A stretch of 64,000 nucleotides of DNA from the NCBI GenBank assembly GCA_016748015.1, contig JAAOMT010000236.1, forward strand, positions 1 to 64,000. The letters are read 5' to 3'. The notes beneath the pieces are model-generated. The model was not told the origin of the DNA. It worked only from the letters and a program-made list of their open reading frames with translations, and did not search any database. Origin of the DNA: Geosiphon pyriformis uo1 (lineage: Eukaryota > Fungi > Glomeromycota). Within the stretch, counting starts at the first letter, position 1. Every line of letters begins with the position of its first letter. The position numbers and the translations under genes are program-made. Below are positions 7,022 to 63,400 of the stretch, one piece after another.

Positions 7022-7023
7022 AA

Positions 7024-26410: not shown

Positions 26411-26412
26411 AA

Positions 26413-27775: not shown

Positions 27776-27797
27776 CTTTATATATTCTTTTAATGAA

Positions 27798-29179: not shown

Positions 29180-29240
29180 CTTTTGTTATATTTTTGTTGG
29201 GTTTGGTTTGGTTTTGTTATATTTTTGGATTGAAATGTTC

Positions 29241-30500: not shown

Positions 30501-30939
30501 GTTCATTTGTTCCAATTGTTCTGGTTAGAGCAAATAACATTTATTTCGTCTGTATATGGTTTGTGAAGTATTGTCAACATATTTGCACAGCTGTGGAAAG
30601 TTTGGTACACTGTTTGGTGGCTGGTCTTTTATTTCTGTGGTCAAATATCTGATAGTGGTTCCTTCTGGTATCTCTACAACATTTCCTGTATTGTTGTAAA
30701 TGGGAATTTTAATCTGATTATGGTTTTTGGCTGGTATGTGGAGATTAATGAGTCCAATCTCTTTTGATTCACAAAGGCTTGCTTTTGCTTCAAAAATCTG
30801 TGCTTGATTTTTTACCTTCCTTTCTATCGCTATCATGTATTAGTCATATGGTGGAATAGAAATTGCTTGACCAATTGAGATAAATTCTTCTTGGCCAATA
30901 GTTTTTTCTTCTATCATATTAACCAGTATATCTATTCTA

Positions 30940-31340
30940 CCTGTGGATCTAAATCTCTGGATTCCTCTTGCTGTTATTCCTAATTCCTCTTTATTTCTTA
31001 CTGACACTAACTGAGCTATCTTAACCAAAGGTAAGAATATTGCCTGTGTTATTTTTTTGTTTGGCTCTATAATATAGGCCTTTTCTAAGTCATTTTGTAG
31101 CATTGCCATAATATTTTCCACATATCCAGCATTAATTATTCCTCCTCTGATATTTATCACTTTTTTCACTAAACTACTCCTAAATGCTAGTTGAACCATG
31201 GTTGTTGCTAGAATTTCCAGTGCTATTTTGAGATCAATGCAGGTGCACAAATGTGGTTCCAATTTTATGGCATTTTTTCTTAGATACCTCAGATCAAATC
31301 TAGCATCAGTATCATGTGCACATTCTGGCATAATACCTTC
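30940..31340 (-). pseudogene. dut: dUTPase domain of D
   Basis: DARFDL, RSSL, GGIINAGY, KITQAI, RGIQRFRSTG. Confidence 0.9.
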
Positions 31341-34300
31341 ATCATTGTCACTGTATCATTTCAACTCTTGTTCTTTTGAGAGATCTGGTAAGGCAATATA
31401 TTGTTCATAATTGGAATTAGAGTCTAAATCTGAGTTAATTTTGTTGCCATATTGAACTGAACTGGAACCATTGTTGTTGTCATTATTGGAGTTTGAATTA
31501 GGATTGAAAATTGATTTCAATTCTGATGTGCAGTTGCTGATTGGTTTGTTTTCTTCTAGAATCGTGTAGATTATGCATAGTGGTGGATTGTAAATAAGAT
31601 CACACTCATTACAATACTGGAAGTCACATGGAATCAAACAGTAGTTACATAGTCAAGTGTTTAGCTGTGCTAAATACTCTTCCTGTTTTTCTCTTGTGGG
31701 TACCAGATTTTGGTAATGCTCGTAAAAGTTTTCTGGATTGGTTTCAATGTTGAGGAAAGCATCTGAGTTGGGGATCAGAATGATGTCAACCTGTTTAGGC
31801 AGGTTGTTTTTAATTTCCAAGATTTTGCTGGACATGGCTCTTTCTACTTTGGCATTAGCCATTCACCAGATTTTGTCTTTGTTGTGTGGATAACTTTCTA
31901 AGCGAAAGATCACTCAGTGCCAGACGGCTGTTATTGGCATGTTACGACTTACCCAATCGCTGATGAGGATCGTGTATTGGCATGAAGTGTCACACATTCC
32001 TCCCCAATTAGGAATGTCATTCCACATTTCTTCATCGAGTAACTGTTTGCCACAAGTGAAACATGGTTTGTTGTCCCACTTGCTTTGTTATTTTGGATGG
32101 CCATAGTATTCTCTATCACATGGCTTGCAATAATAGTGGGTTTTCGTCCAGTAGTCTTCATCAAGTGCGATCCATGCTCCCATGGAAGAGAGTTTCTTCT
32201 TATAGTTCTGACATTTTAAGGGGATGTAAGGTGGCTTTTTCACTGGCTCACGTGAGTATTTTCTTTTCCAATCACTGGTTATTTTCTTGGTGACTTTGTC
32301 AGTTTCTTTAGGTAAGTCTTCTTCTTTTCCTTTTTCTTTTTCTTCTCAGCTTGTTGGTGTTGATTTGTTTTTGTCATCATTGTTCTAGGCATCGATGATG
32401 GTCTCCCAGGTATGTTCTTCTGTTTTTTTTCTTTTTCTCTTTACATTGTTCTTTTTTTTCCAGTCTAGAATTGGCAATAGCTTGTTGTGCTCGATGTCAG
32501 CCCATGATACTTGGTATGTCTCCCAAGTAGGCTTTAGTTTTTCCTCCTCAAAATTGATAAGCGGTGCTAATGACATGACGTTGTTAGGTTTGAAATGGTC
32601 ACATGTTGCCGGTATTTACATGTGTTGGCCATTTTGGCTGAGTTGAAGTTTCTGAGTAGTCCAATCTAATATTGCATTGGTTTTAGATAACCAGTCATTG
32701 CTCACTAATGCCTAATATTGTATTGCTTCTATTACCAAAACTTTGATGAGAATGATAATACCATTGACTTCAAATGGAAAGTTGTCAATCTCACCAATAG
32801 GAGTTTTGGTGGCTCCATTGGCTGTTATAATTCTTGTACTGGCAGCTCAATCAACTCGATGACCTAATTAATCTATGAGCTGCCCTGTAATGATACTGCT
32901 TGCTGAACTACTGTCGAGGATTAGTTTAATGGGGTGACCATCAACTTTCGCATCAGTATACATGACTGTAATAGGCTTCTCTTCCAATACAGCTTCACTA
33001 AATAATGGTGTGGCTGAGGGTTTCTCGAATTCAAAAGGAAAGATGGCATTCAAAGCTTCATTTTCAGTGATCATTGCTGGAAGAATATTGGTGAGTGTTG
33101 TTTGCTGATTGGATTCTGGTTTGTTGGAGATGGTGTTTTCTGGGGTGACCAGAAGACTTAAATAGTTCTGAGAATTCGGGTTTTGGGTGGAACTGGTACC
33201 TGAATTCCGAGAGCATGATCCAGCTGGTTGATGAGAAGAGTTGGAGATCAGTTGGTAAACAATCATCGCTGATCTCTAGTTTTGAGTGATTCTAGGTCTT
33301 GGGTTTCCTGATGTCATAGTAGCTGAGTTTTGGGGTGGTGTTTGAATTTGTTGGGGTTGATAGATCACTTAAGACAGTGGCTAATAGATTATTTGTGGCT
33401 GCGGTGAATAAATTGTTGGATTTTGATAAACTGGATGTTGATATACTGGTGGTTAATAGATTGATTGCTGTGTTATTGGTAGGTAAGTAGTTTGATATTG
33501 TGCTGAGTTTGATTGATGATTCGGAGTTGAAAAACCGGTAATTGGGGTTTTGATATTAATTTCCTGATTGTTGGTTATTTAAATATTGGCAGCAGTCGAT
33601 TTGGATATGTCTTTGTTTACCACAATAGTGGCAGATACACGTTTCCTGTTACCACTGTTGATTGGTCAATAAAGATAGACATGGTTGATTTTGGGCACAA
33701 TTAGAGTTTTCTTAATTATTGCATTGTTGTGGAGACTAATAAATGACGTAATTGTCAGTTAAGTATCCTTCCAATTTCTTATTAATTGATTCACTGAACT
33801 TCTCTAATTTGGAATCTAATTCAGATGATCCGTTTATCACTAAATTAACAGCTTGGGTGTGGTTGGCCTCTGACTTAGCAGATTCAAAATCTCTGGCACA
33901 TGTAACTGCGTCTTGAAGTGTACCTGAATGTAACAGACATACATGTTGCAAGATGCTACTGTGCAGACCACAGATAAACTGGTTGAGAATCTGTAGTGCT
34001 GTAAAATAGTTGGTGTTAATTGCTTGAATTTGGCACAGATTTCAATAGAAGCATTTCAGGTAAGTGGTGACTGCTTCAGTTTCTTCTTGTTTCATGGTGG
34101 TGAACATATTGACTAAGCAATTGATGCTGTTATTGTTGCTGAAGTATTTTAGGAATTCCACTTTAAAGGCATTGAAATCTTGTAGTTTATTATTCAAGCT
34201 CTGATATCATGAATTGGTAGTATCCTTGAAAAAGTAGAGAATGGCTTGTATTGCTCAGGCATCATTCCATCTGTTGGCTGCAATGGCCTTTTCTACATCA

Positions 34301-35401
34301 TTTAACCATACTTAAGCATCATCTTCTTCGCCAGTAAAGTTGTCAAGTTTTGCGATTGGTGCATAGGCCATTGGATCTAAGTTGGGTTATTGTGATGGCT
34401 GTTGAAGCAGTGGTTGTTGAAGTAGTAGTTAAAGTGGCTGCTGTATGGGTTTGGCTATTGGATTAATTGGTGATTGATTAATGACAATTATCAGAGGTAA
34501 GTTTTGCTGATTAATTAATTTGGGGTTTGGATTGTTTTGTCTTTGATGATTCGGAGTTTCGATTTCCAAATTTTCTAGATTTAGATTTTGCTGAGTTTGA
34601 AGATTTGGGGTTTCAACTTCTGGGTTTTCAGTGATTGGGTTCTGGTAAGTAAATTTTTGTTCCTCAGATTCTTCTTCTTTCTCTTTTTCTGATTCCGTCA
34701 CTTCCCACAGATCAGAAATTCTGAAATCTGGTGACAGTGGTGGTGATCAGAGGCCTGATAGAATTAGTGATTGCAAGTTAAATCCTTCAAAGTATTTGCT
34801 GTATGGTTCTAGTAAGTCTGTTTTTCTTTGTTTACTTTGAAATAGAAATCTTTCAAATGTTGATGTCACGTTTGATGTGAATGTGCCTGTAAATGTAATA
34901 TTAATGGTACTTCCAGGTGTATAGTAGTATGATGGATTAGTTGGAAATTCAACTCTTGTTTTCTTCCAAGTGGGTGGTTGTATCCTTTTAGGTGTTACTG
35001 CTGGTATTTGTAGTTTTCTTTTGCCTTTATTAGCATATGTAATTGGATATCTTTGCTGTGTGTGATGCTCAATTCTTTGTTGATATCAGTAATAATGGAG
35101 GCAAAATTGTGATTTGTTGGCAGGTTGGTATTTTGAATTAATTCACTGTAAAAGGCTGCTCTTGCCAATTCAGTATTTACTGATGTTTCCAACAGATAGG
35201 CAATTTTTTCGTTGACATAGAAGTTGAAGGCTGATTCGGCAGATATATGATTGTGGTTTAATCCCAAGTGTTGACAATAGTGTTGAAATAAAGATTTTGC
35301 AAATTCTAGATGGTTTGCTCCTATGTTTTCTGATTCTGCCACTTTTAGATTTGTGTTGGTGCTGGTTTTCTGTAGAATTATACTTCACAGAGAGCACTAA
35401 A

Positions 35402-36264
35402 TGTTACAAATAATTATTTGGGATCTCAAGTCAAATAACAAACCTGTAACTTGGTGCTCAAAAGCTACTCATGTTGTTAATAATAGTTTTAAGTAGTTGG
35501 TATCTGAAGGTTTTTCCAAATGAGTCTTTTGTATAATAGACAGAGATTTTTTGTTAATAGTATTCGCAGTTTTTTTGTAAGTTGTTTCCCAATTTCTTTC
35601 TTAGCTTGATGGCTGGATTTATTTTGGCAGTCATGTCCTTCTGGTAAGTTATCCGATAATATATATAATCTTACCCTTATTTCTGGGTTTTTTACCAGAC
35701 TATTGTGACATCAATAACTCAGTGCTTTTAATCTTCAATAAATTAGTATACAATAACAAAATCAAAGAAGAAAATAAAAAAAATAAAGAAATGTAAAAAA
35801 TTAAGCCAAGGCAAATTGCAAATTAGTATCCTGTTAATAGCCGTGATCAATAGTTATTGTTCCAGTGTAGTTAAGTATCAATTACTATCAACATGAAGAG
35901 TTGATAGTGGAAATGGGTTTGAGATAATAAATAGTTATTTATTGTGGCTTAAAAAGTTGTTTAGATCAAATCTAAATTGAGAGGTCTGTATTTTCAGCTT
36001 CTAATACTACTGCTATATATACATAATTGAGATTTTTCAATTTCTCAATTCTTCACAACAGGAGTCCTGGAATTTCTGAAATCCTGCGATTCCTTTGAGA
36101 AGAATCCTGGAATTCTGCAATTTTGCAATTTCTTGTGTAAGAATCCTGTAATTCTTAGAATTTTGCAATTCCTGAAAGAAATCCTGGAATTCCACATTTA
36201 CTATGTCTACTTCTGATTGGCTAATAATTATGCTAATATATTTTCTATATTTCTATGAATAATA
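35402..36264 (-). repeat. 5' LTR of D (family 2)
   Basis: TATTATTCATAG (decayed TGTTACTC)...TGTAACA; AGCCAATCAG, 8-9 bp AATTCC(T)GG/AATTCTGC-type repeats, TATATATAG. Confidence 0.9.
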
Positions 36265-39200
36265 CTGGTTATTTTATAGTATTACAGATTTTAAATTAAT
36301 TTATTTATGAATTAAGTAGCAGTTTGTTACAATAAGTACATTCAATACACCCAAATATTCTCTAAAATATAGTTACATATGTCTGAGATTTTGAATTGGT
36401 CAAACTTAAAGCCAATTACATTCAAGCCATAAATTTAATAATAAACAAATCATCTGAATTAGATTCTAAGCTGAAACAATTCAGTAACTTTATTAATCAG
36501 AAATTTGAAAAATACTTAGTTAAAAATCAAGCAATTTATTAGTCTTCTTAATATTATGACAATTCAGGAAACTCCAATCACTTCTAAAATTCATCATATC
36601 TATTATTGTTATTATTAAATTAACTGTAACAACAAAAAATACATAATTGTTATTATTGTAATAAACAAAGCTATTTAAAAGCAGATTGTCACTTCAAATT
36701 TAATAACCAATAATTAGAAAATCAATATTAAAACTCTGATTGCAAGTTTAAAACCCAGAATTATATCAACAATTTATTATTGGAATTATATTTATATTAA
36801 TTATATTACTCCCAAATAATACAACAATTTATATATATACTTCCAGTTTATCAAATTTCAGTACTGATAATCTATTAATCATAATCATAAGTAATATATT
36901 AATCTCAATCAATTTAAATACTGCCACAAAACTTAGCTTAAATAACAACTGAAAATCAAAAACTGAAAATTATATACACATAACAAAACTAAAAATTAGC
37001 AATGATTATGCACCAACCAATTTCTAGTTTCATAAATTAAGCATTAAAATTATGTTTAAAAAATTTAGGAAGTAAGTACATCTAAAACTCGAATTCCCAA
37101 AACTATTTAAATCTCTTAGTTATCCCAAAAAACACTCAATTTAACAAATCAGAACAGCTAAAACAACCATTTTTCAATAATATTCTACTAACAATAGTTA
37201 TTGAAAACAAGTTACTTGCAGCTATCTTTTTTTTTAAATTAGAAAAATACTTAATAATATCTTTTTTTAGTAGAACTATTCTTAATACTAAACTGATTAC
37301 TGCTATATATATGAATACTAAAGTTAATAACCAATTTATCAAGCTAATTCTTGATAGTAAATCAATAAACAGTATTTTTACACAACAACTTATAGACCAA
37401 TTAGGTTGCTGAGTTGATCAAACTGCCAGTGCTAAAATCATTACAGCTAATAGAATAACAAAAACTTTTATTGATAAAATTGATGACTTTTTATTTAAAG
37501 TCAAAGATATCATTGTATTAATCAAAGTTTTAGTCATGAAAATCACACAATATCAAGCTTTTATTGGTAATAACTGGCTGTTCAAGACTAATACAATACT
37601 TAACTGAACTACACAAAAGCTACAGCTTAGTCAAAATAGTTAGCATACTTAAATACTAGTTATCTGTGGTCATTTCAAAACAACCCAATTACAGCCATTG
37701 ATTGAATTTAAGAAAGAAATAAACAAATTATTTGAAAAGTCTGTTAAGTTTCATGGGCCAAAAAAGAGCACAATAAACTGTCACCAATACTCTTTTGGAA
37801 CAACAAAAGAAAAAAAAGAAAAAAGAAGAAAAAAAACTCTCAAAACACTACTATTACTAAAAAAACAGCCCAACAGTTGGTATGTACTTTACTCATCAAA
37901 ACAAAAGAAAAAACCATCTTATATTTATCTTAGATATATTGATTATAAAAAAAACTTTTTTTCATGTAAGCTTAAATTTTACCAAAAGAAAACTACTAAA
38001 CACATATTTACTATTATTATAAACTATATTACAGAAAATCTTTTGGGTATTCAAAATGACAAGGAAAGTAGGACAACAAATTATGTTTTACTTGTGAAAA
38101 AACATTATTTAACAAAAAAATATGGAATAATATTTCTAATTAAGAAGAAATGTACAATACTTTGTATCAATATACAATTTCCATAAATAATAAATAAGCT
38201 AAAAAATGTCTTTTAATGCTATATAGAACTAAGTACTCTTGTATTTGGATTGTTATTCACATAACAAAAACAAAATCTAGAAAATAACAAATACCAAAGT
38301 CAAAGATATTTTATTTAATAAAATATTGATAATTAAAAACAATCTACCAGAATCTATTAATACTATTCTTATTCTGAACTCAGACATTTTTTTTAACATT
38401 CTAAGTAATCCAGAACAATTTTACAAACATTACCAAGATCTAACACCTATTCAAAATAAGCAAAAGCAGTATTTAGAACAATTAAATACTAGACTTTGTA
38501 AATATTGTCTAATTTTTAGTTGACTTTAAATATTGTAATAATTGTAATTTTATTTACAATTCACTTTTATACATGATTTATTTAATTTTTAAAGAAGAAA
38601 AACCAATTAACAAGTGTGTTTTAGAATCAAAATTAAAATTTAATTATAATTTAGTCTTTAACAATAATAATAATAACAATTTTAATATTATTTATTATAA
38701 TAATGACAACAATAATAATTTAAACTTTGACAAAAATCTCAAACAATATATTGTGCTTTCAAGAACAGAAATTCAAATGGTTCAGTAATAATAATAAGAA
38801 TATTATGCCAAAATGTGCACATAATACTAATATAGAATTTAATTTTAGATATTTAAAAAAAACTGTTATCTGATTGGAATTTTATTTGTACACTAGTATA
38901 GATCTAAAAATAGCACTGAAAATTTTAATAGCAACAATAATCCAATTAATTTTTAGATCTAGTTTAGTAAAAAAAGAAATTAATATTAGAAAAAAATAAT
39001 TGATGTAAGATATATAAAAAATATTATTACGATGCTACAAAATAACTTGGAAAAAAGATATATTATTAAACCAAATAAAAAAATAGCACAGGCAATATTT
39101 TTGTTTTTGGTTAAAATAGTTCAATTAGTATTAGTAAAAATGAGAAAAGAATTAGGAATTATGGCAAAAGAGAAATAAATGAATTTGAATAAACAAGTAA

Positions 39201-39425
39201 AATAGAGATATTAATTAATATAGTTGAAGAAAAAACAATTGATAAAGAAAAAATTATTTTTATCAATTAATCTATTTCAATTCTATTATATGATCAGTAT
39301 ATATTAACTATAGAAAAAAAAATAAAAAATTAATCCCAAACTTTTAAAGCAAAACCAAACATTTATGAATTAAGATAAATTGACATTATTAATCTCTATA
39401 TACTAGCCAAAAACCACAAACACAT

Positions 39426-40284
39426 TGTTACTTATAGAATATAGAAAAAATATTAGTATATAAAATAGCCAATCAGAAATAAATGTAGTAAATATGGAAT
39501 TCTAAGATTCTTTCTAGAAAAATTGCAGGATTCTAAAAATTTCAAGATTCTTATATGAGAAATTGCAGAATTCCAGAATTCCAGGATTCTTCTTAAAAAA
39601 ATTACAGAATTCCAGAAATTTCAGGGTTCCTGATGAGAAAAATTGAAAAATTAAGGAATCTCAATTATGTATATATAGCAGTAGTGATAGAAGTAAAAAA
39701 AAAAACAGACCTTTTAGTTTAGATTTGATTTAAGCAACCTTTCTATTTATAAATATCAATAAATAATTATTCACTATCTTAATCTATTTTCCACTGTTAA
39801 CACTTCATGTTGATAGTAACTGATACTTAATTATACTAGAACAATAGCTCTTGATTATAGCTATTGATAGGATATTAACATTTATTGTCTTGGCTTATTT
39901 CTTTATTTTTTTCTATTTTCTTCTGTTATTTCTTTGTGTTTTACTAATTAATTAAAGATTAAAAAGCACTGAGTTATAGACATCATAGGGACTGATAAAA
40001 AACCCATAAAACAAAAATAGAACACTTATAATTGAGGATAGCTTACCAGAAAGATTACCAGCCATCACATTAAAAAAAAAATTCGATAGAATTGCAATTC
40101 CAGAAGACTACTAACACAACAATTGAATCTTTGTTCATTATACAAAGAACTTAACCAAAACTTTCAGACAATCAAAACCTTCAGATACAAACAATCTTTA
40201 GATATTATTAACATTAACAAGTAAATTAGCACCAAGTTATGAGTTTGTTATTTGATTTGAGATCCCAAATAATTATTTGTAACA
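39426..40284 (+). repeat. 5' LTR of F
   Basis: TGTTAC...TGTAACA; direct repeat of 48565-49407. Confidence 0.93.
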
Positions 40285-40348
40285 TTTAGTGCTTTCTGTA
40301 AAGTATAATCTAACAGAAAACAAGCACTAACAACAACCATACAAAACA

Positions 40349-43300
40349 GTAACAGAATCAGAAAAAACAGAGACAAACCATTTGGGATTTGCAAAATTTT
40401 TATTCCAGCACTACAAAAGTTATTTGGAATTAACAAATAATAATTGGCCAGCAGAATCAGCTTTCAATTGCTATATTAACAAAAAGATTGTATATTACTT
40501 AGGAGGACAAAAAGATTCAGAATCTGCCTTCAACAATTTCTTTAGTGAACTACTTTAAAACACCACATTACCACAGAACTATTTATTTGCATCAATAATT
40601 ACAAAAATAAACAGAAAAATTGAAAAATACATTAAACAAAAATTTCTCATCACTTTTGCAGACAAAAAAAAAAAGATTACAAATACTAGTAAAAATCCCA
40701 AAACAAATACAACTACCTATTTGGAAAAAACAAAAAGTTGATTCTCCAGTGAATTCATCATATCACTACACATCTGGAAGCATTATCAATATAACATTAA
40801 CAGGCATGTCCACAATAAATACAACAATATTATTAAATAAAATTCTATTCTAAAGTAAACAAAAGAAAGCCAAGTTATTGGGAACATATGACAATTACTT
40901 TGAAGGATTCAAATCACAATCTCTAACACCATCAGAAATTTGATTATCATTTAAACAGCCAGATTTTGGAGCTGTTAGTCCATAAGAGATAACCAATTTT
41001 GAAAAAAAGAAAGACAGCAATCAAGAAATAAATAGTCAAAATCTGATCCCAGAAAATCTGGAAATTCAAATTCCAATCATCCCAACTCAGCAAAATTAGA
41101 ATAATCCAAACACTGCTCCTATTGTTCCCCAAAACTTACCTCCAATAATCCTGATTAATTCACCTTCAGTCCCACCAATTATCAAACAGCAATAACAACT
41201 ACTACCACCTTAGCAACAATTACAACAGCCATTTTAACAACCATAACAACTGCAACAACTGCCACTTGTAGCTTTAATAACATATGTTCCAATTGCGAAA
41301 ATCAAAAAATTTACTGGTGAAGAAGATGACACCCAAGTATGACTCAATGATGTGAAAAAAGCCATCACAGCCAACAGATGGAATGATGACAGAATCTTTT
41401 AAGCAATTCCCTATTTTCTTTAAGATACTGCTAATTCATGGTATCAAAGTTTAGCTGCCAAACCACAAAATTTTCAAGAATTTAAATTGGAATTTGTGAG
41501 ATATTTCAGTAACAATAATAGTATTAACTGACTGGCAAATACCTTTACTACCATCAAACAAGGAGAAACTGAAGCAGTTACTACTTAATTAGGATGCTTC
41601 TATAGAAATTTACACCAAATACAAGTGATTGATGTGAATTATTTTACAGCACTACAGATCTTGAATCAATTTATCTGTGAACTATACAGTAGCATTCTCC
41701 AATACATATGTTCATTATATCCATCTGACTTTCAAGCTACCATCACTCATGTCAGAGACTTTAAATTAGCCAAACTCAAAACCAATCATGCTTAAGCTAT
41801 CAATCTAGTAATGAATAAATTATCTGAATTAAATTTGAAATTAAAACAATTCAGTAATTTTATTAATCAAAAATTAGAGAAATACTTAGCTAACAATCAG
41901 GCAATTTATTAATCTCCACAATACCACAATAATCAAAGAAACATGAATTGTTTCCAATCTTAGCCATATTTATTACTATTGACCAATTAGCAATGGCAGC
42001 AGAAGACACATGTTTGCCACTATTGTAGTAAACAAGAACATTTGAAAATCAACTGCAGATTAAGGATAGATAACTAACAATTGGGAAATCAATATCAAAA
42101 TCCCGATTGCCAGTTTCAAACTCCAAATTATCAATCAAACCCAGAACCATATCAACCAAATTATCTACTCATGACATAGCAGCCAATCTATCAACCACCA
42201 ATTTATTAGCTTCCAGCATCTGTAGTTTATCAACTGCAGTCTTAATCTATCTATTAGCCACAGCTTTAAGTAATCTATTAGCCCCAACTAATTCAAATAC
42301 TGCCACCAAATTCAGCTCAAATAACATCAAAAAATTTCAGATCAAAAATCACTCAAAACTAGAGATCAGTAATGATTGTCTACTAACCAATTCCTAGTTC
42401 CACAACCCAATAATCAGGATCTTGCCAGTAGAATTTAAGAACTGAATATATTCAAAATCTGAATTCCCAGCACTACTTAAGTCTTCTGGTTATCCCAAAA
42501 GACACCTCATCCAACAATTAGGAACTCAACCAGAAACAGCCACTTAATAGCAATATCTCATTAACAACCAGTACCAAAGACAAATTATTTGCATCTATAT
42601 TCTCTTTTAAACTTAAAGAAACTACTCTAGTCTCATTATTCAGTGAAGCTATACTTAACACCAAACTTATTACTACAATGTACACTAATGTCAAAATTAA
42701 TGACTATCTTATCAAACTAATCTTAGATAGTGAATCAGCTGGCAGTATTATAATATGACAACTTATGAACCAATTAGGTCACCAAGTTGATCATGTGGCC
42801 AGTACCAGAATTATTACAGCTGATGGAGTGATCAAAACTCCCATTGACAAAATTGATAACTTACCTATTGAAGTCAATGATATTATTATACCAATCAAAG
42901 TTTTGATAATAAAAGCCACACAATATCAGACTCTTGTTGGTAATAACTGGCTATTCAAGACCAATGTTATACTTGATTAAACCACATAGAAGCTCCAGCT
43001 CAGTCAAAATAAGCAACACATTTGAACATTAGCCATGTATAGACATTTCAGAACTCCTTCAAAGAAAAAACAACTATTGATCAAGCTAAAAGAAAAAAAA
43101 CCTTATCTGGGAAGCCTATTAAGTTTTGTGGACCAATAATGAGCACAATAAATTACAGTTTATACTTTTATGAGATGACAAAGAAAAAAAAAGCAAAAAG
43201 AAGAACTTATCTAGAATAATAATCAAAAATTGTGAACTGACAACAATCAAAATAAACTGATACCAAGTTAGAAATGGGAAAAAACCAAGAAAGAGAAAGG

Positions 43301-46300
43301 AAAAAAAAAGAGCTATTATCAGCAACCATTACAAATTATACTCCATATACTTATACTCTACTACAACTGTCTAACTATTGCCAACTAAAACTGATGTGCA
43401 TTGATTGTGACAAGAAATTGTTATTAATGGGCGCATGTTGTGGCAATGATAAAGAATACCCAACAGCAACAAAATTCTATTGTTACTCATGTATTCTTAA
43501 ACAATTTAGATGACCAAAAAGACAAAAAAAATGGGACAACAAATTATGCTTGGCTTGCAAAAAAACTCTTTTAATGAAGAAATGTAGAATAACATTCCTA
43601 GAAAAGGAGAAACATGTAACAAATTGTGTTAATACACAATTTTAATCAACGACTGAGTACACAAAATAACACCAATAGAAGCAGTCTGAAGAAGAACAGT
43701 AAAACATTTGGATAGATGTTCTCATAATAATAACAAAATATGGCACATGGCACTTGCTAAAATCAAAAGAGCATTACCAAAAAAAATAAGAGTGATTAAA
43801 AATAACTCACTAAAACTCATAGAATTCGATTGAGATCCAAATTCAGATATTGTACTAGACTTTATGGACCCAGAACAATTTCATGAACACTACCAAGAGT
43901 TAGCACTCACAAGAGAAAAGCAAAAACAATGCTTGAAAGAAATAAACACTCAACTATGTGACCATTATTTGATTTTATGTAACTTCTAATATTGTAATGA
44001 GTGTGACCTTATCTACAATTTACTATCATGCATAATCTACACAATTCCAAAAGAAAAAAAACCAATCAGCAGCTGTGTATTGGAATCAAAAGCACTGTTC
44101 AATCTCAATTTAAACTCTGATAATAATAATGACAAAAATAACAGTTCTAGCTCCATTTAAAATGACAATAAAAATAACAATAATTCAAGGAACAGAAATT
44201 TAAATGGTTCAGCAATAATAATAAAAGTATTATGTTAGAATGTACATATGATACCAATACAGAGTTTGATCTAAGATATCTCAGAAAAAATGCCATCAAA
44301 TTGGAACCACATTCACGCATCTGTATTGATCTCAAAATAGCACTGGAAATCCCAACAACAACAATAGTTCAATTAGCATCTAAGAATAGTTTAGCAAAAA
44401 AGAGAATCAACATCAGAGAAGAAATAATTGATGCAGAATATGTGGAAAATATCATTGTAATGTTACAAAATAACTCAAAAAAGGCCTACATAGTAGAGCT
44501 AAACAAAAAGATAACACAGACAATATTCTTGCCTCTGGTTAAAATAACTCAATTAGCATTAGTAAGAAACAGAGAAAAATTAGGGATTATAGCTAGAGAG
44601 ATACAGAGAATCAGATTCATGAGTAGAATAAATGTACCAATTAATATGGCAGAAGAAAAAGTTATTGATAAGAGAGAAATTATCTTCAACCATCAATCAA
44701 TTTTTATTCTATTATATAACCAGTACATATTAGTCATAGAAAGGGGAATAAAAAATCAAGCTCAGATTTTTAAAGCAAAAAACTACTATGTGTAAACCAG
44801 GAAAGATTGGACTTACTAATTTTTACATATCAGCCAAAAGTCTGAAACATATTAAAATTTCTATTTACAACACAACAAAAGATGTTCTTGAAATATTAAA
44901 AGAAATTACCATCAGATATTTAAGCACTAAAGTTAAAAAACAATCACCAAACCCCATTTCAAACTTTCTACAACTGTGTAGATATATGAATATTACATTA
45001 CAAACAATATATAAATGAGAAAAATATTATCTGCTTTAATTAGAACAATTGAAACAAATAAACTTGGGAAATCTAAATCCACTACAATATATATAACTTA
45101 AAATGTTACTTAACAATTTCAATAACATTTTTGCCAGTAAAAACGAATTTGACAGAACCAACATAATCCAGCATCAGATAAAAACTGAAGATGCGATGCC
45201 AATCAAACAGAGAGCATACAGAATACCATTAACAAGCCATGAAATCATCAAACAAGAGATTAATCAAATATTAGACAATGTGTTAATTCAACTATCAATG
45301 AGTTCATGGTTATTACCAGTGGTACTAATCCATAAAAAAAATGGGAAAATATGCTTTTGTGTGAACTACTGAAAACTTAATGAAGTAACCAAAAGAGATA
45401 GTTACTCAACTCTAAAAATCTAAGAACTGTTTGATGCTTTTGGAGAAAAGAATTAGTTCTCAACTTTAGACTTAGACAGTGGTTACTGACAAGTAGTTAT
45501 GAAACCAGAAGACAAGAAGAAAATGGCTTTTACAACTTTAGAAAAAAATTTTGAATTTGAAGTTATGTCATTTGGCTTGATGAATACTTCTGTCATATTT
45601 CAACAACTTATGAAAATTGTCTATACTAGACTGCTATGGAAATCAGTAGTCATATATCTGAAAAACACTAATGTGTTTTTCAAAACATTTGATGATCATT
45701 TGCACTATCCAATAAGTATTTGAAAGACTAAAAAAAGCTGGATTAAAATTGAATGCAATCAAGTGTTTTTTTGAGAAAACTGAACTCAAGTTTTTGGAAC
45801 ATATTATAAGCAAAGATGAAATCAAAACAGATCCAGACAAAATTAAGATAGTTAAAAATTTTTTAATACTCACCAATTTGACTGAATTACAAGCATTCTT
45901 GGAATTTGCAAGATATTACTGCCACTTCATTAAAGACTTCTTCAAACTGGTTTAGCCATTATATCAGCTTTAAACAAAGAACACCAAATACAAATAAATG
46001 AAAACTCAGCAAAAAGCTTTTAACACATTAAGAAAAAAGCTTATTTAAGCTTCAGTACTAATCTATTTAGATTATAGTAGGCTATTCATAATTACAACTG
46101 ATGTATCAGGTTAAATATTAAGAGCAATACTATTTCAGAAAAAACTGGATAGAAGAGAACACCTAGTAATATATGTTAGTTACAGCTTAAGTCCAGCTGA
46201 AAAAAACTATAGAACACCAGCATTGGAATACTTAGCAATTTATTGGACAGTTATAAAATAAAAAGAATACTTGAGCCAAAAGTTTGATGTGTATATTGAT

Positions 46301-46456
46301 TATAAAGAACTGACTTTAATCCAAAAACAAGAATTTAAAGATGATCATCATGTTTAATAGAAAATAGAACTTTCACTATTTAATTATACAGTACATTACA
46401 AAAAAGGAAAAAAAAATGGAAATGCAGATGGCTTGTTACAAATAAAACAAATCTAA
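40349..46456 (+). pseudogene. gag-pol: gag-pol polyprotein of F (N-domain to RNase H)
   Basis: CHYCSKQEHLKINC, ILDSESAGS, Cys-rich 43390-44010, dUTPase from 44232, RT 45103-45955, ends KQI*. Confidence 0.88.
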
Positions 46457-46486
46457 GAATATTTCTACTCAAAAATATAACAAAAA

Positions 46487-47867
46487 ATGAATATACAAAA
46501 ATATCAACAACTTCAACACTATATTAATATCCAGCAGTTCAAGAAGAAATTATCTCCAAAAGAACAAAGCCATATTAAACAACAATCTAAATATTTCATT
46601 ACTCACCAAGAGATATTTTATTGGAAAAACAGAAAGAATTCAGACCAACCAACTAGAGTAATTACAAAACCAAAGAAAGAAACAATATTGTTCAACATGC
46701 ATTCAGATTTAACAGCAGGACATTTTCATAAAGAAGTAATCATAAAAAAAACCAGAAAAAAATACTATTGGCCATTAATATATCTAAACATTATCTAATA
46801 TGTTCAAAATTGTGATGCTTGTAAGAAAAAAGAAAGAACAAAACCCAGCAAACCATTAAGACCAATTAAAATAAAACAACTATTTAACCATATTAGAATT
46901 AACTTAGTCAAACCATTAACAATAACTAACAAAAAAAATAGATATATCACAGTAGCCATGGATTATTTTACTAAGTGGCCAAAAGCAAAAGCCATTCAAA
47001 GAGCAGATGCAGAATTCATTGTTGAATTCATTCATCAAGATTTAATTTGTTAACATGAATGTCCAAAAGAACTACTATCAGATCAAGGAACTCACTTCAT
47101 AAACAAAACACTAGCAGAACTAAGTCAAAGATTTGGAATTAAAAGACCATTATCATTACTATATCATTTACAAACAAATGAGTTAGTTGAAAGATTTAAC
47201 AGAACATTGTGTAAAGCAATTGCCAAAATCAGCCAAGAAAACCAGAATAAATAAAATTTGTTTATATCATCAGTATTATTTGTTTATTGGACAATAAAAC
47301 AAGACACTATATAAGCAACACTATTTAAATTAGTATATAATAGAACAGCAACATTACTAATTGAGATAAAAATCAACACATATCCAACAGAACCAATAAC
47401 TGAAGACAATTTTCAGGAAATGTTGCTAAGAAGAACATATAACTTATGGAAACTCTAGAAAACAAATGACAAAGAGCAGCTGATAACATTTAAAAGTCAC
47501 AAGAAAAACAAAAAAAAAACATGATAACCAATTATCAGATAAACCAGTTGAATTCAAGATTGAAAACAAAGTACTTTTATATCATACCAAAGCAGAAAAA
47601 CAATAGAATAGAAAATTTGACCCCAAATAGAACAGATTATTTCACATAGAAAAAATTCTAGAAAATGAAACTTATAAATTAAGATTAAACAATAAAATTT
47701 TAACCAAAGCAGCACATGGTAATTGACTGAAATTATATCACCATATAGTATCATCACTCACCAATAATATTTCACAATTAAGAGTACAGAGAATACTAGT
47801 CCAATCCAATAAAATTCTATAAGATCTAGAACCAATTATTATTATCAACACCAACATATCAAATTGA
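46487..47867 (+). pseudogene. Integrase ORF of F (intact ATG)
   Basis: MNIQKYQQLQHYI.., H2C2, DYFTKWP, SDQGTHF, VERFN, ends LEPIIIINTNISN*. Confidence 0.9.
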
Positions 47868-47889
47868 ACAACTAAAAGAATATAAAGAC

Positions 47890-48550
47890 ATGATAGATGT
47901 GACAAAAACAACAAAAAAAAATGGAAATACCAAACTATATTTACACTTTAACTTAATAATTCTTTCAACTAATACAACAATAAAAGATGAAAATTATAAT
48001 TAATCAACAAATTATCAGATACAAAAACACCAAAAAAGAACCACAAGATAAAATACGGGAGAAAAACAGAAAATACTATTAACAAAATAATTACAATGGT
48101 AAAATTGGTAATAAAAACACAACCAAAAGTTATCCAATATCAAGAGTTGATGATAGAAACATAGAATTGGTAAACACAACAATTTTCAAGAAACTTTTGC
48201 TATTTCTATTTGGGACAATATCTGAATATTCAAAACTTATATATGGACAAGACAAAGCAATTATTCAATCCAGGAATATTACAACAACTTGAAAAATTTG
48301 TGGGAAAAAACAATTTAATTACATAAGCATGAGTCATCTATTGATTACAAATCGAATTTCAAGACCAACCAGAAATCTTACTCAATTCAACAATGGATTC
48401 TATTACTGTTAACCAAATGAAAAAAATAACCAATGCCCAATTTGAAAAATTACAGAACAAGATAACACAAGTAATTCTCGAAAAAGAAGTTCAAGAAATA
48501 CTTAAAGATAAAGCATTAGAGTTAAAAAATATTGACAGAGCTCAATATTA
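47890..48550 (+). pseudogene. ORF3 of F, ending at the PPT
   Basis: MEIPNYI..FFQLIQ..KIIINQQII..NFCYFYLGQYLNIQNLYMDKTKQLF..; homologous to D ORF3. Confidence 0.7.
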
Positions 48551-48564
48551 AAAAAAGAAAATAA

Positions 48565-49407
48565 TATTACTCATAAAATATAAGAAGAATATTAATATAT
48601 AAAATAGCCAATCAGAGATAAATATAGTAAATATAGAATTTTAAAATTTCTCTCAGAAAAATTGCAGGATTCCAAAAATTTCAAGATTCTCATATAAGAA
48701 ATTGCAAAATTGCAGAATTTTTCTCAAAGAAATTGCAAAATTCCAGAAATTTCAGAATTCCTGGTAAGAAAAATTGAGGAATTAAAAAATCTCAATTATG
48801 TATATATAGCAGTAGTAGTAAAAAAAAGAACAGATCTCTCAATTTAGATTTAATTTAAGCAATCTCTTATATCACAAATATCAATAAATAATTCACTTTC
48901 TCAAATTCATTCTCTATTATCAATGCTTTATGTTGATAGTAATCAATACTTAACACATTGGAACAATAGCTCTTAATTATGGCTATTGATAAAATACTAA
49001 CTTGCAAATTGCCTTGGCTTATTTTCTTTATCATTTTCTTTATTTTTTTTATTTCTTTTTGTTTTATTAATTAATTAATGATTAAAAAATGCTGAATTAT
49101 AAACGTTATAGGGACTGGTAAAAGACCCATAAAACAAGGGTAGAACACTCATAATTGAGGATAGCTTACCAGAAGAATTACTGGCCACCATACTGAAAAA
49201 AAAATTTGATAGAATTGCAATTCTAAGAAACTACTGACACAACAATTGAATCTCTGTTCATTATACAAAAAACTCAACCAAAACCTTCAGACAACCAAAA
49301 CTTTCAGATACAAACAATTTTTAGATATTACTAATGTCAACAAGCAAATTAGCACTAAGTTATAAGTTTGTTATTTGATTTGAGACCCTAAATAATTATC
49401 TGTAACA
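48565..49407 (+). repeat. 3' LTR of F
   Basis: TATTAC (decayed TGTTAC)...TGTAACA followed by the TSD. Confidence 0.93.
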
Positions 49408-51595
49408 ACATCAAAATTTCAATATACAACACAACCAGAAACTTTATAGAAATATCAAGTAAAACTACTATCAAATACTTAAGTACTGAAGTTGAAAACC
49501 AATTACCAATCATTATTTCAAATTTTTTACAACTGTATAGATATGTGGATATTATATTACAAACTATATATAAACAAGAAAAATATTATTTCTTATAATC
49601 AGAACAATTAAAACAAATAAACTTGAGAAATTAAAACCTATTTTAATATATGCAACTTAAGATACTACTCAACAATTTCATTAATATCTTTGCCAATAAA
49701 AACAAATTTGGTAGAACTGATATTATACAACACCAGATTAAAATAAAAATGATATGTTAATTAAACAAAAAGCATACAAAGTACTATTTGCTAATCATAA
49801 GATTATTCAACAAGAAATTAATTAAATGTTGAACAATAAGTTAATTCAACTATTAATGAGTTTATGGTTATTATCAGTAATATTTGTTCAGAAGAAGAAT
49901 AAAAAAATCTGCTTTTGTATAAATTATAAAAAACTTAACAGTATTATTTATAGAGACAGCTATTTAATTCCATAGATTCAAAAACTATTTGACATTTTTG
50001 GAGGAAAAAAATAGTTTTCAACATTGGACTTAAATAGTAGTTACTAACAGATAGTCATTAATTCAGCTGATAAAAAAAAGACAGCATTTACTATCAAAGA
50101 AAAAATTTTGAATTTAGTATTATTTTATTTGGCTTAATTAATATTCTAACTATTTTTCAACATCTCATGAAAATTGTTTATACAGAATTACTATGAAAAT
50201 TAGTAATAGTTTATTTTGATAACATTAATATATTTTCAAAAACATTTAATGATTATCTTTATTATTTTTAATAAGTGTTTAAAAGATTAAAACAAGTAGA
50301 GCTAAAGTTAAATGCTATTAAGTATTTCTTTAGAAAAACTAAACTCAAGTTATTGGAACATATTGTGAGCAAAAACAGCATAAAAACAAATTCAAACAAG
50401 ATTAAAATAGACAAAAACTTCTTAATACTAATAAATTTAATAAAATTAAAAGCATTTTTAGAATTTACTAGATACTATTATCACTTTATCTAAAATTTCT
50501 TCAAACTGGCTCAACTATTCTACTAGTTTCAAGCAAAAAACATTAAATATAAATAGACTAAAAACCAACAAAAACTTTTCAATATTTTAAAAAAAAAGCT
50601 TGTTTAAGTCTCAGTATTAATCTATTCAGATTATAACAAGTCATTTATCATTATTACTAATATATCTAATTAAGTATTAAGAGCTATATTATTACGAAAA
50701 AAAACAAATAGATAAGAACATCTAATAAAATATGTCAGCCAAAGTTTGAGTTCAGCCAAAAAAAACTATAGAACTTCAAAATTAAAATACTTAGCTATTT
50801 ATTAGACTGTTGTCAAATAAAAAAAATACTTAAACTAAAAGTTTGATATATATATAGATTACAAAAAATTAACATTAATCCAAAAGCAAAAATTTGGAGA
50901 TAATTACTATGTAAAATAAAAAATAAAACTATTATTATTTAATTATATTGTATATTATAAAAAATAAAAAAAAATACTAATACTAATAGTTTGTTATGAA
51001 TAAGACAAATCTAAACATTTTAATCCAAAAATATAACAAAAAATAAATATACAAAAATATTAACAACTCCAACACTATATTAATACTTAACAGTTTAAGA
51101 AAAAATTATCTCATAAAAAACAAAACAACATAAAACAACAATCAAAACATTTTATTATTTACTAAAATATACTATATTAAAAAAACAAAAAATATTTAAA
51201 CGAGTCACTTAAAGTAATTACAGAATCAGAAAAAGAAACAATACTGTTTAACATACACTCAGATTTAGTAGCAAACTATTTTTATAAAAAAACAACCATA
51301 GAAAAAACCAGAAAAAAATATTACTGGCCATTTATGTATTCAAAAATTATCTAATATATTTAAAATTGTGATGCTTATCAAAAAAAAGAGAAACAAGATC
51401 CAATAAACTGTTAAGACCAATTAAAATAAGACAACTATTTGATTAAATTAGAATTAACTTAGTGAAACCATTAACTATAATTAGTAACAACAATTAATAC
51501 ATAGTAATAATCATGAATTATTTCACAAAATAGCCAGAAACAAAAGCAATTCAAAAAGCAAATACAGAATTTATAGCTGAATTCATTTACCAAAA

Positions 51596-52533
51596 TATTA
51601 CTCATAGAATATAAAAATTAAATATTAGTATATAAGCCAATCAGAATAGATATAGTAAAAGTGGAATTTCAGGATTTTTTTCAGAAGAATTGCAGAATTC
51701 CAGAATTATAAAATTCTCATATAAGGAATTACAAGATTTTTGGAATTCTAAGATTTCTAGCTAAAGAATTGAGAAATTCAAAAATCTTATACAATAAAAT
51801 TTATGTATATATAGCAGTAGTATTAGAAGCTAAAAAAGAAGTCAATTAAACTCCCAGAATTAATTAGACTTTCAGAGTTAATTAGACTCACAAGTTATAA
51901 TTATTAAATACTTCTTTTTTCAAAAATAGTTATTATCAACCAAAATAGAATTTTATCAATAAAATATCTCTTCAATTTTTTAAATTCATATTATTATCTA
52001 CTACTTAATCTGCTAGCACAATAGCTCTTGATCATGGTTATTGACAGGACACTTATTTCTTATTTTATTTTTTTTATTTTTTTATTTTTTTTATTTTTTT
52101 TTATTTTCTTTTGTTGTTCACTAAATTAATTAAAAAAATTAAACACTAAGTTATTAACATTAAGGATAGTCTGATAAAAGATCCAGAAATAAGAGTATAA
52201 AATTTATAAATTAATAAATAGCTTACCAGAAGGACATGACTGCCAGAATAAACCAGTCATCACACTAAAGAAAAAAATTTGACAGAATAACTATTCTGGA
52301 AGGCTATGAACACTAAAACATACCAACTCAAAGGTTGGAAAAGAAAATTAAAAACATCACACCAAGATATTAACATTGAATTTCTGTCTATTATACAAAG
52401 AACTTAATCAAAACTTTCAAATTATAAAAACCTTCAAATACAAAATCTTTAAAAACAACATTATTATATTAATTAAACACCAAAGTTACAGATTTGTTAT
52501 TTGTTTCTAAATCCCAAATAATTACTTGTAATA
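51596..52533 (+). repeat. Solo LTR (family-2 variant) in the integrase of E, 5-bp TSD CAAAA
   Basis: TATTACTC...TGTAATA; CAAAA at 51591-51595 and 52534-52538; host FIYQxLIC frame rejoins. Confidence 0.9.
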
Positions 52534-53660
52534 CAAAATTTGATTTGTTGATATAGATATCCAAAAAAATTGTTATCAAACCAGAAAATCCACTTTATGA
52601 ACAAAATATTAACAAAATTAAGCCAAAAATTTGGAATTAAAAGACTATTATTATTATCATATTATGTATAAACCAATAATTTAGTCAAAAAATTTAACAG
52701 AATATTGTGCAAAATAATAACCAAGATTAACCAAAAACATCAAGACAAATAAGATTTATTTATACTACCAGTATTATTTGCTTATTGGACAATAAAGCAA
52801 AATACTACACAAACAATATTATTTGAACTAGTCTATATTAAAACAGCAATATTATAGTTAAAATATATATTAATATATATCTAACAAAACCAATAACAGA
52901 AGCTAACTTTTAAAAAACATTGCTAAAAAAAACATATAACTTAATAGAAACTTTAAAAAACAAAAGACAAAAAACAGTTAATAACATATATAAATTACAA
53001 ACAAAACAAAAAAAATAACATGATAACCAATTATCAGATAAACTAGTCAAATTTAAGATTGGGAACAAAGTACTTTTATATTGTATCAAAGTGAAAAAAC
53101 AATAGAATAAAAAATTTGATTTCAAATAGAACAGACTATTTTATATTTAAAAAATTCTAGGAAATAGAGCTTATAAATTAAGATAAACAACAAAATTTTA
53201 ACTAAAGTAACACATAAAAATTAACTAAAATTATAATACAATATAATATTATTATTTACCAATAATATTCCACAATTGGAAATACAATAAATACTAATTC
53301 AACCAGATGAGATTCCACAAAATCTAAAACCAGTTATAATTATTGATACAAACATGTCAAATTGATCTACAAAAACAGTATATAAAAAATTAATATATAC
53401 AATAAAAGCAAGTAGAAAAATGAAAATTACTGACAATATTTTCTCATTTGTACAACAATTATTACAACTTATTTAACATCAAAAATCAAGTCTAGAAATC
53501 ATTATTAACAAACAAGCAATCTAAAATAAAAACAAAAGAATAAATCAAAAATCTCAAAGAAAAAAACAATATTCCAGATATTATATTTCTGGAAATCCAG
53601 TAAACAAAATAATAGAAAAAGTGGAAAAGACTCTAAAAACTTCAAGAATAGTGATATCAG

Positions 53661-54631
53661 TATTACTAGTAGAATTTTAGCTATTAATTAGCATGAAATT
53701 ACCTTCATAATTCCTATTATATATTAGCATATATTATTATCATTTCGATTATTACTTATTACTTAATCAAATTATCAAATATTATTACTCAATTAATAAC
53801 CCAATTTGTACCATAAAAATTAAAATAATCAAATTACACAATACTCTGAACCATTTAATATAGTTAAAATTCGCCGAAATTGATAAAAATTCGCCGAAAT
53901 AATCAATAGTTTGTAGAAATAACTTGTAGTTCACCAAAATATATCTTTAGTTTGCCAAAATTAAAGCAAAGAAAAAAGTGCAAGTTCAAAGACTAATACT
54001 ACAACAAGTTGTATAAAAAAAGAGCTTTTCTCTTCAAGAAAATGTATTTTCTTATATCATAGTATAGTATTTTACTTTAGATATCTTAATTATAACAAAT
54101 CATCTTTTACAAAAATCAAATAAAAATTAAAATATTCCAAAACCAAATCCTTAAATTATTACACTTAAAATTCTCTTAGCACAATTAACGTTTTGAAATT
54201 GATTAACTACCAATTTCAATAAACTGTTAGTAACTTTAGGTCTGAATAGAAAATATTTCTCTTGATAAAATCTTATTTTTTTTACATTTCTTTTATTTTT
54301 TCTTTCTTTTCTTACTATAATCATTAAAGTAGTCTGCAGACAAAATTTCTGTAGAAAAGTTAACTTTCACAGCAAAAGTAACTACATATTTTTAGTAAAC
54401 TTTTAGATAAGCAATTTTTAAGAAGGAGTTGACATTTATTACAACATAACTACACAAAAAAACTGGCATAGAATTGGTCATTTTACTTATAAGTTCAGCA
54501 GTTCAAATTATAGAAGATAATTTGTAAATAAATTCAGTTATTGGAGGTTCAACTGCTTCCAAAAAACATAAAATTAGCAACAGACAAACATTAACAACAT
54601 TCAAAAAAAAGACCAAAAATCTCTGGTAACA
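53661..54631 (+). repeat. 5' LTR of G
   Basis: TATTACTAG...CTGGTAACA; direct repeat of 63401-64000. Confidence 0.93.
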
Positions 54632-55103
54632 TTTGGTGCTCTCTCACAGAAATAACATAGCAACAGCAAATTTAAAGTGGTGACCACACCAAACACAATA
54701 ACTCTAAAATATTATCAATCAATTTACATTTACTGCAAGCAAAGATTCAACATCTAAGACGGAATTGAAATTTTTAAGAAATCACTATACCAATATATTA
54801 AAAACTGCATCAACAATTATCTTTTTGGAAACTACAATATTTCAAAAGTCAGAAACAACTTTTACAATATTTTATTGTACTATTTACTATTGGGAACTAA
54901 AGATCATAACAGTGAAACACTTGTTACCTACTTTCAAGAATTTAACTTTAACATTATCCAGTACTGTAAAAAAAAGTATCTAGTACAATCCAAATACTTT
55001 TTTGACTTTGAATCAGAAACAGAGACAAGCAACAAAGGCAAAAAAAATTGAAACAACACTCAAAAACTGTTCCAAACACTCCAAAAATACCAAAAACAAC
55101 TGC

Positions 55104-56075
55104 TGTTACCAGAGGTTTTTGGTCTTTTTTCTTGAATGCTATTAATGTTAATTTGCTGTAAATTTACATTTTCAAAAAGTAGTTGAACCTTCAGTAACTG
55201 AATTTATCTTCAAATTATCTCCTATAATTTGAACTATTGGGCTTATAAGTGGAATGGCCAATTTCTTGCCAGTTACTTTATGTAGTTTTATTGTAGTAAA
55301 CGTCAACTCTTTCCTAGGAATTGCTCATCTGGAAGCTCACTAAAAATGTGTAGTTACTTTGCTGTGAAAGTCAACTTTTCTACAGGAATCTTGTCTGTAG
55401 GCTACCTTAATAATTATAATAAGAAAAGAAAGAAAAATAAAAAAAATATAAAAGAAATAGAATTTTATCAAGAAAAACGTTTTTCTATCCAGGCCTGGAG
55501 TCACTAACAGTTTATTGAAATTGGTAGCTAATCAATTTCAAAACGTTAGTTGTGTTGAGGGAATTTCAAGTGTGATAATTTAAGAATTTGGTTTTTCGAA
55601 TATTTAATTTTTATTTGAATGTGTAAAAGTGATTTGTTTCAATTAAGATCTCTAAAGTAGAATGCTATAGTAAGATACTATAAGAAGATACATTTTCTTG
55701 AAGAGAGAAGCTCTTCTTTTATATAACTTGTTGTGGTACTAGTTTTTGAACTTGCACTTTTCTCTTTGCTACAATTTGGGTGAACTTAAGATATATTTCA
55801 GCAAATTTACAAGTTATTTCACTGAACTATTGATTATTTCGGCAAATTTTCATTAATTTCGGCGAATTTTGACTATGTTAAATGGTTCAGGGTATTGTGT
55901 AATTTGATTATCTTAATTTCTAGAGTACAAATCGGATTATTGATTAAGTAATGATATTTGATAATTTGGTTAAATAATAAGTGATAATCGAATTAATAAT
56001 AATGTATGCTAATTAATAATAGGAATTATAAGGGTAATTTCATGCTAGTTAATGACTAAAATTCTACTGGTAATA
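55104..56075 (-). repeat. Family-1 solo LTR, antisense inside G, 4-bp TSD CTGC
   Basis: TGTTACCAG...CTGGTAATA on the plus strand; CTGC at 55100-55103 and 56076-56079; the empty site ACAACTGCCAAA is seen in A. Confidence 0.93.
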
Positions 56076-63397: not shown

Positions 63398-63400
63398 TTA

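Follow-up and report, generated by a model that had tools for sequence, protein, structure and literature searches.

A Ty3/Gypsy element of Geosiphon pyriformis with integrase and a third gene in separate reading frames

The usual plan of Ty3/Gypsy (Metaviridae) elements places integrase within the Pol polyprotein. A 64,000-nucleotide (nt) stretch of Geosiphon pyriformis uo1 DNA (contig JAAOMT010000236.1, positions 1 to 64,000; hereafter the window, from whose first letter positions are counted) holds a near-10-kb long terminal repeat (LTR) retrotransposon, element F (39426-49407), in which a stop codon lies between RNase H and integrase. Is this stop a product of decay or part of the design, and how would the genes beyond it be translated? 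F is a dead Ty3/Gypsy LTR retrotransposon of Geosiphon-type fungi, whole in layout. Its membership is established by the domain order protease (PR), reverse transcriptase (RT), RNase H, integrase, together with RT grouping, TG...CA LTRs and a target duplication. Integrase within the Pol polyprotein, which is usual for the family rather than a formal criterion of it, was not found here.

Integrase and ORF3 as separate reading frames

The layout is Gag-PR-dUTPase-RT-RNase H, stop, integrase, stop, open reading frame 3 (ORF3), with integrase and ORF3 in reading frames of their own. A stop was found five codons past the motif that ends RNase H in all six window copies that contain the junction, and the integrase stop, present in 5/5 copies, follows a C-terminus common to two metagenome loci (L001 and L004). 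As a control, 434 internal columns to which all six copies contribute were inspected: none had stops in five or more copies, and three had stops in four. The integrase start lies 28-61 nt beyond the RNase H stop and is ATG in copies A and F and ATA in B, E, G and H; relative to RNase H, integrase is in the same frame in the former two and in +1 in the latter four. The three cistrons proposed in a first-pass annotation of this DNA are real.

We then sorted 80 metagenome loci by a crude rule, which called 34 of them fused and 15 split; another 12 lacked integrase and 19 lacked the motif. Four were accepted as split: L001 and L004, which the rule itself had called split, and L007 and L042, which it had placed among those lacking integrase but whose integrase starts were then read. 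All four carry the RNase H stop. In L004, an uninterrupted frame extends from protease through RNase H and is followed by the stop, a 30-nt spacer and a 423-aa integrase; the spacer of L007 is 4 nt. In L001, two short ORFs (83 and 85 aa; 868-1399) without a Pfam match lie between RNase H and integrase, joined by a 32-nt spacer and two stop-start overlaps. In L042, an acidic, Cys-containing ORF of about 230 codons (2004-2904) stands between RNase H and an integrase start at the contig end; its candidacy as a relative of the Cys-rich insert described below was rejected, as 51 of 282 shuffles scored as high. The other 13 "split" loci reflect apparent decay: their stops fall at unshared places, relatives in the same families run through, and those present in the first RT tree fall outside the clade described below.

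Database proteins end at the same position. Among RT matches containing the motif, 22 of 24 end within 20 residues past it (search with a length filter); of 49 cluster members examined without such a filter, the 38 that reach the motif all end 0-13 residues past it, many with identical C-termini on different contigs. Two proteins (P0382 and P0405) run without interruption from protease through RNase H and stop there. These data bear on the possibility that an ordinary gag-pol element acquired the stops by mutational decay, the architecture being an artefact. Decay is pronounced, as C-to-T and G-to-A changes have left 1-4% stop codons in the copies, four of six copies have a stop in one Trp column, and the 13 rejected loci were flagged through apparent decay. 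However, uninterrupted relatives end at the same place, the split maps to a single clade, and L004, P0382 and P0405 contradict decay directly, making this explanation extremely improbable.

The RT tree placed the window copies, the four accepted loci and 23 of 24 RNase-H-ending proteins (the exception being P0047) in one clade, which included none of 32 fused-pol elements. Support was 1.0 with FastTree (RT) and 90 in the Shimodaira-Hasegawa-like approximate likelihood ratio test (SH-aLRT); with more outgroups, the values were SH-aLRT 75 and FastTree 0.96. The first RT tree left out 7 of 207 rows because their coverage was low; SH-aLRT trees were built on chosen subsets (71 and 77 rows), reference Gypsy RTs were metagenome loci labelled by Pfam, and some "fused" labels were set by eye where the motif pattern failed. 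No Chromo match was obtained in the integrase tail of F, in L001 or in L004; 4 of 12 fused control loci, all outside the clade, had one. The sister group consists of elements without a chromodomain. The RT lies in a well-separated clade outside the chromodomain-bearing elements, in line with the earlier suggestion of a clade of such elements. Named RT relatives come from Dentiscutata and Racocetra (about 50% identity), and the accessory proteins match Geosiphon pyriformis (Glomeromycota). Viral-contig scans yielded no clade member, and the clade junction occurred in none of the 14 Gypsy-like loci examined (L101-L114, from a set running to L169).

ORF3 starts 22 nt past the integrase stop in F. 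All 88 matches to the copy E protein are Geosiphon pyriformis hypothetical proteins, and a profile search of 1.84 billion representatives likewise gave 88 matches. Ten distant profile matches were looked up: eight are from Geosiphon and two are metagenome proteins (P0352 and P0359), which provide a link to the diverged copy H ORF3 (E 7e-10 and 3e-11), a protein missed by the F-type profile. Like the copy H protein, both end in a peptide encoded by the junction of polypurine tract (PPT) and LTR; copy H ORF3 reads through the tract into the 3' LTR (63340-63426), and the C-termini of the two proteins suggest the same. ORF3 is present in all three LTR families, for family C via database proteins only. 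No transmembrane stretch was detected in five of five proteins tested, two of them intact (highest 19-residue hydropathy 0.27-1.29), and Pfam and PDB sequence searches returned no env family and no credible match. ORF3 is therefore not an envelope, and the term "retrovirus-like" applied earlier does not hold; the protein is likely a soluble accessory factor. Its structure model, predicted helical, was poor (mean predicted local distance difference test (pLDDT) score 54). Fold searches with the poor models of ORF3 and the Cys-rich region returned nothing beyond helical matches of a common kind (best Z 6.4 and 5.0), with no BFVD match at E 0.001, and are uninformative on novelty. A role for ORF3 as a required reinitiation factor was ruled out by L001, which has the split integrase and no ORF3.

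Possible routes of translation

Starting from the observed layout, conserved stops and clade, we infer each of the translation steps that follow. At the head of the N-domain, GTG follows AAA in copies A, H, C and E, whereas B has ATG and F has GTA; given G-to-A decay, an ancestral GTG explains all six copies. The GTG context is conserved in all three lineages. Between the primer-binding site (PBS) and the capsid start, ATG is sparse in copies A (2 in 784 nt), E (2 in 1030), F (2 in 988) and B (1 in 931) and occurs 8 times in 956 nt in C, compared with 12-23 per kb downstream. In-frame Met was found at 1 of 858 N-region codons versus 80 of 4498 downstream (P 2e-5), and out-of-frame ATG in the N-region numbered 10 versus 23 expected from codon shuffling (P 0.002). 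Of 12 database proteins with the capsid-start motif, 11 have a Met where the capsid begins. This pattern suggests that leaky scanning likely produces long and short Gag-Pol forms: part of the scanning ribosomes would start at the weak GTG, giving a long Gag-Pol with the N-domain, and most would start at the first capsid AUG, giving the short form.

For the genes downstream, the reading we favour, to which we assign a probability of about 0.55 with the rest of the model included, is that ancestral elements had the three-frame layout and expressed integrase and ORF3 by termination-reinitiation on one RNA. After the RNase H stop, a fraction of ribosomes would reinitiate at the integrase AUG, which would set integrase below Gag and RT in an element without a gag-pol frameshift. 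Termination-reinitiation fits best because the spacers are short, A-rich and variable, the integrase Met is fixed, and L001 has stop-start overlaps. Several observations weigh against it. Every window copy is heavily mutated, in none of them do stop and start overlap, and copies within one family are not independent. Decay alone can put stops into as many as four of six copies at Trp and Gln columns, clade support falls to SH-aLRT 75 once outgroups are added, and ORF3, absent from L001, is not needed for the split. G-to-A decay could have removed splice acceptors, and the copy H spacer contains CTAACAG. For the leader, lineage C shows weak AUG depletion (shuffle P 0.18), and in two of four copies the low-complexity linker that follows the CCHC motif is AUG-poor too (A 5.2 and F 3.4 per kb), so that composition accounts for part of the depletion. 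Moreover, ribosomes that have translated a frame of about 1,900 codons normally reinitiate with low efficiency (PMC5902531).

The same three genes might instead be served by spliced or internally started subgenomic RNAs carrying integrase and ORF3. Env-type ORF3s and foamy-virus Pol are expressed in this manner. ORF3s of LTR elements are typically made from spliced messages (PMC5408684), the spacers show no stop overlap, the motif in copy H resembles a branch site plus AG, L004 has AG dinucleotides at and past the stop, and in L042 some 800 nt and another ORF separate RNase H from integrase. Set against this, the B, F and G spacers share no conserved YAG, spacers are purine- or A-rich rather than pyrimidine-rich, L007 leaves just 4 nt, and L001 has its chain of stop-start overlaps; we regard subgenomic RNAs as the main rival, though less likely than reinitiation. 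Integrase could also be made as a fusion if ribosomes read through the stop codon or shifted frame where RNase H ends. Such recoding is the usual device of LTR elements and integrase is in the RNase H frame in A, F and L004, but it is in +1 in B, E, G and H, a second in-frame spacer stop occurs in F and L004, integrase has its own Met at a fixed position, and whole ORFs intervene in L001 and L042. A fusion product is accordingly improbable.

Element F, its accessory regions and the surrounding copies

The features of F and the other copies are listed in Table 1; copy letters may differ from those of the first-pass annotation. Its order of domains, from LTR and PBS through integrase, ORF3 and PPT to LTR, was recovered in F. 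Its description of F as complete is correct for the layout but not for the sequence: F has 21 stops among 841 aligned RT, RNase H and integrase codons, several frameshifts, YLKN as its RT motif, GTA at the start and a PPT eroded to an A-run. The LTRs, with termini TGTTAC...GTAACA, are 82.7% identical over 863 nt and differ by 116 transitions and 14 transversions in 838 columns, mostly outside CpG. F is inserted in the second beta-rich region of element D/G. Pfam scans of F used reading frames translated with stops as X; RVT_1 gave no match, and RT was identified by tblastn to other copies and by the RT matches of copy C. The PBS-like site of copy C differs from that of A, B, E, F and H. A scan for PBS-like motifs matched, among 20 loci, the 3' end of one phage tRNA-Thr, which names no fungal primer.

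Table 1. Positions of element F features and of the other copies in the window
Feature	Position	Strand	Basis or remark
Copy A	148-8007	-	
Copy B	9877-18400	-	
Copy C	20874-27262	-	
Copy E	27261-36275	-	
Element D/G, interrupted by F	36249-39425 + 49408-53660	+	
Copy H	53663-64000	+	
F: target-site duplication ACAT	left 39422-39425, right 49408-49411	+	4 bp
F: 5' LTR, 859 nt	39426-40284	+	LTR comparison
F: putative primer-binding site, decayed	40285-40302	+	position and first bases common to A, B, E, F, H
F: AUG-poor stretch, PBS to capsid start	40285-41272	+	2 ATG/988 nt vs 19.7 per kb downstream
F: ORF1, Gag-Pol without integrase, broken	40349-46456	+	
F: probable near-cognate start codon, GTA	40349-40351	+	comparison with other copies
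F: N-domain without known fold	40352-40740	+	21-56% identity across three lineages
F: Gag capsid, Retrotrans_gag	41280-41880	+	Pfam
F: CCHC zinc knuckle	42015-42056	+	spacing intact in F; zf-CCHC Pfam match in copy A
F: aspartic protease	42660-43010	+	Pfam match, under curated cut-off
F: Cys-rich insert, frameshifted	43331-44090	+	several CxxC pairs flanking predicted helical bundle
F: dUTPase	44223-44630	+	Pfam and five motifs
F: second beta-rich region	44643-44943	+	homologous across lineages
F: RT, frameshifted, catalytic motif decayed	45100-46010	+	tblastn to other copies
F: RNase H, conserved terminal stop 46454-46456	46010-46456	+	Pfam RT_RNaseH
F: A-rich 30-nt spacer, ORF1 stop to integrase ATG	46457-46486	+	
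F: integrase ORF (H2C2, core, GPY/F-like tail, no chromodomain), broken	46487-47867	+	Pfam Integrase_H2C2, rve; ATG 46487, stop 47865-47867
F: ORF3, about 220 aa, predicted helical, no transmembrane segment	47890-48551	+	ATG 47890, stop 48549-48551
F: eroded polypurine tract, A-run	48550-48564	+	position and comparison with copy H, where PPT is clear
F: 3' LTR, 843 nt	48565-49407	+	

In copies A and C, the N-domain through RNase H is read in a single frame (about 1,885 codons in A), in the order N-domain, capsid, CCHC, protease, Cys-rich insert, dUTPase, beta-rich region, RT, RNase H; Gag and Pol thus share a frame and a gag-pol frameshift is absent. The accessory modules pointed out earlier hold up, since N-domain, Cys-rich insert, dUTPase and second beta-rich region are each homologous across all three protein lineages. 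The five dUTPase motifs are the commonest column states among 55 aligned Geosiphon copies; the domain matches solved dUTPase structures (PDB sequences), is also present in the intact clade member P0405 and would limit uracil in cDNA. All 79 long matches to the Cys-rich insert of copy E are Geosiphon pyriformis hypothetical proteins, a count limited by the fact that no all-library profile search was made for this insert or the N-domain. Neither the insert nor the beta-rich region had a match in loci L001-L080 or the 49 cluster members. The Cys-rich insert was thus found in Geosiphon only and ORF3 nearly so; the clade-wide trait is the split integrase. A second dUTPase in the beta-rich region, suggested by eye, was not supported (profile-profile probability 0.65%; hidden Markov model scores no better than shuffles): the region had no PDB dUTPase match and no detectable link to dUTPase, and the model of the Cys-dUTPase-beta segment was poor (mean pLDDT 42) and unusable there. 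In L004, positions 1-2919 encode a very long Gag N-terminal region with repeated Cys motifs and Pro-rich repeats, and gag and pol are in different frames.

The window is an AT-rich, CpG-poor nest of decayed LTR elements, within which copy C lacks integrase and ORF3 and copy A lacks ORF3. LTR comparison distinguished the three families noted previously: F-type (65-83% identity among five), A/H-type (73-93% among four) and C-type (about 26412-27262), which matches neither. The last was recognised because four ORF3-family database proteins continue into matching sequence and it adjoins a different PBS-like site. Solo or partial LTRs lie inside other copies at 51596-52533 (in G, 5-bp duplication), 55104-56080 (inverted, in H, 4-bp duplication) and 10903-11286; these duplications, and the 4 bp of F, were read by eye. 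In the LTR pairs 39426-40284/48565-49407 and 53663-54631/55104-56078, about 85-90% of differences are transitions, mainly at CpA and CpT, not CpG. A C-to-T process acts strongly on these repeats, RIP-like (repeat-induced point mutation) or deamination-driven. Another repeat (8046-9830, - strand) contains two long ORFs of 297 and 166 aa, which match parts of several Geosiphon proteins and have no Pfam match; they look like ORF1 of a non-LTR element. A coding-like segment with higher CpG (20146-20870, - strand), unrelated to the Gypsy elements, interrupts copy C within RNase H; it has a CxxC and by eye resembles a DNA-transposon protein. N runs (assembly gaps) at 11287-11873, 13285-13444, 18708-19092 and 20126-20145 total 1152 bases.

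Relation to known systems

With the non-chromodomain branch of Ty3/Gypsy, these elements share TG...CA LTRs, a putative PBS and PPT recognised by position and conservation, a 4-5 bp target duplication, the order PR-RT-RH-IN, a CCHC Gag, and an integrase with H2C2 and a GPY/F-like tail. They differ in the separate integrase ORF, in Gag and Pol sharing one frame, in the likely non-AUG start and in the extra ORF3 without a membrane segment. Errantiviruses are env-bearing Gypsy elements, with a membrane-anchored envelope as ORF3 in contrast to the ORF3 here; chromoviruses carry a chromodomain at the integrase C-terminus, for which no match was found here.

What is unusual in these elements is the layout, not the dUTPase that forms part of the domain string noted earlier. 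A dUTPase or dUTPase-like domain between protease and RT has been described in Postia PosPlaTy3-5, Phanerochaete elements, Tuber Tmt1 and planarian Burro (PMC2864245, PMC6431247), and, together with an ORF3 downstream of pol, in the bdelloid rotifer elements Juno, Vesta and TelKA (PMC5408684). The Postia set is described as chromodomain-bearing, unlike the clade here, and in the passages covered on the former four, no separate integrase, Cys-rich insert or such ORF3 is described. In the rotifer elements, pol includes integrase and the ORF3s are env-like, GDSL or DEDDy (PMC5408684); the ORF3 here matched none of these in Pfam and PDB sequence searches.

LINE-1 (63-nt spacer), SART1, victoriviruses and Cryphonectria hypovirus 1 combine a long ORF, a stop, a short spacer or overlap and a second ORF on one RNA (PMC5972666), which, in these non-LTR systems, offers an analogy of working only. 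LTR elements are said to use frameshifting, in contrast to termination-reinitiation systems (PMC5902531). In rice tungro bacilliform virus (RTBV) and badnaviruses, a weak non-AUG start likewise precedes about 900 AUG-poor nt; RTBV shows leaky scanning from AUU across 900 AUG-free nt (PMC5902531). Their scanned ORFs are separate genes, whereas in the elements here initiation at the weak codon would add an in-frame extension to Gag, and AUG depletion is incomplete. In the literature covered, outside subscription journals, Repbase, GyDB, REXdb and supplements, no description of a Gypsy element with a separate DDE integrase was found; "separate ORF" in the papers checked refers to other things, and the passages covered of a fungal LTR survey (PMC3248453) and of PMC2774666 contain nothing on a three-frame layout. 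Papers on transposable elements of arbuscular mycorrhizal fungi treat Gypsy at superfamily level in the passages covered (PMC11952901, 10.1101/2021.03.30.436303), and 41.2% of the Geosiphon genome is reported to be LTR sequence (PMC11952901).

Tentatively, and with more doubt than confidence, these elements may form a genus-level Metaviridae lineage centred on arbuscular mycorrhizal fungi that lost frameshifting and would use GUG leaky scanning (two Gag forms) and termination-reinitiation (free integrase, third protein); they would then be the first LTR retrotransposons with such a plan. In the textbook view of LTR retrotransposons and retroviruses, Pol carries integrase into the particle. Where integrase stands free throughout a widespread clade, other routes of translation and packaging are needed, and the free protein would have to reach the particle on its own, by binding RNA or Gag. 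Such elements would also account for many orphan "hypothetical proteins" of Geosiphon, among them the 88 ORF3 and 79 Cys-rich matches, and annotation pipelines built around a fused pol will assign them to the wrong class.

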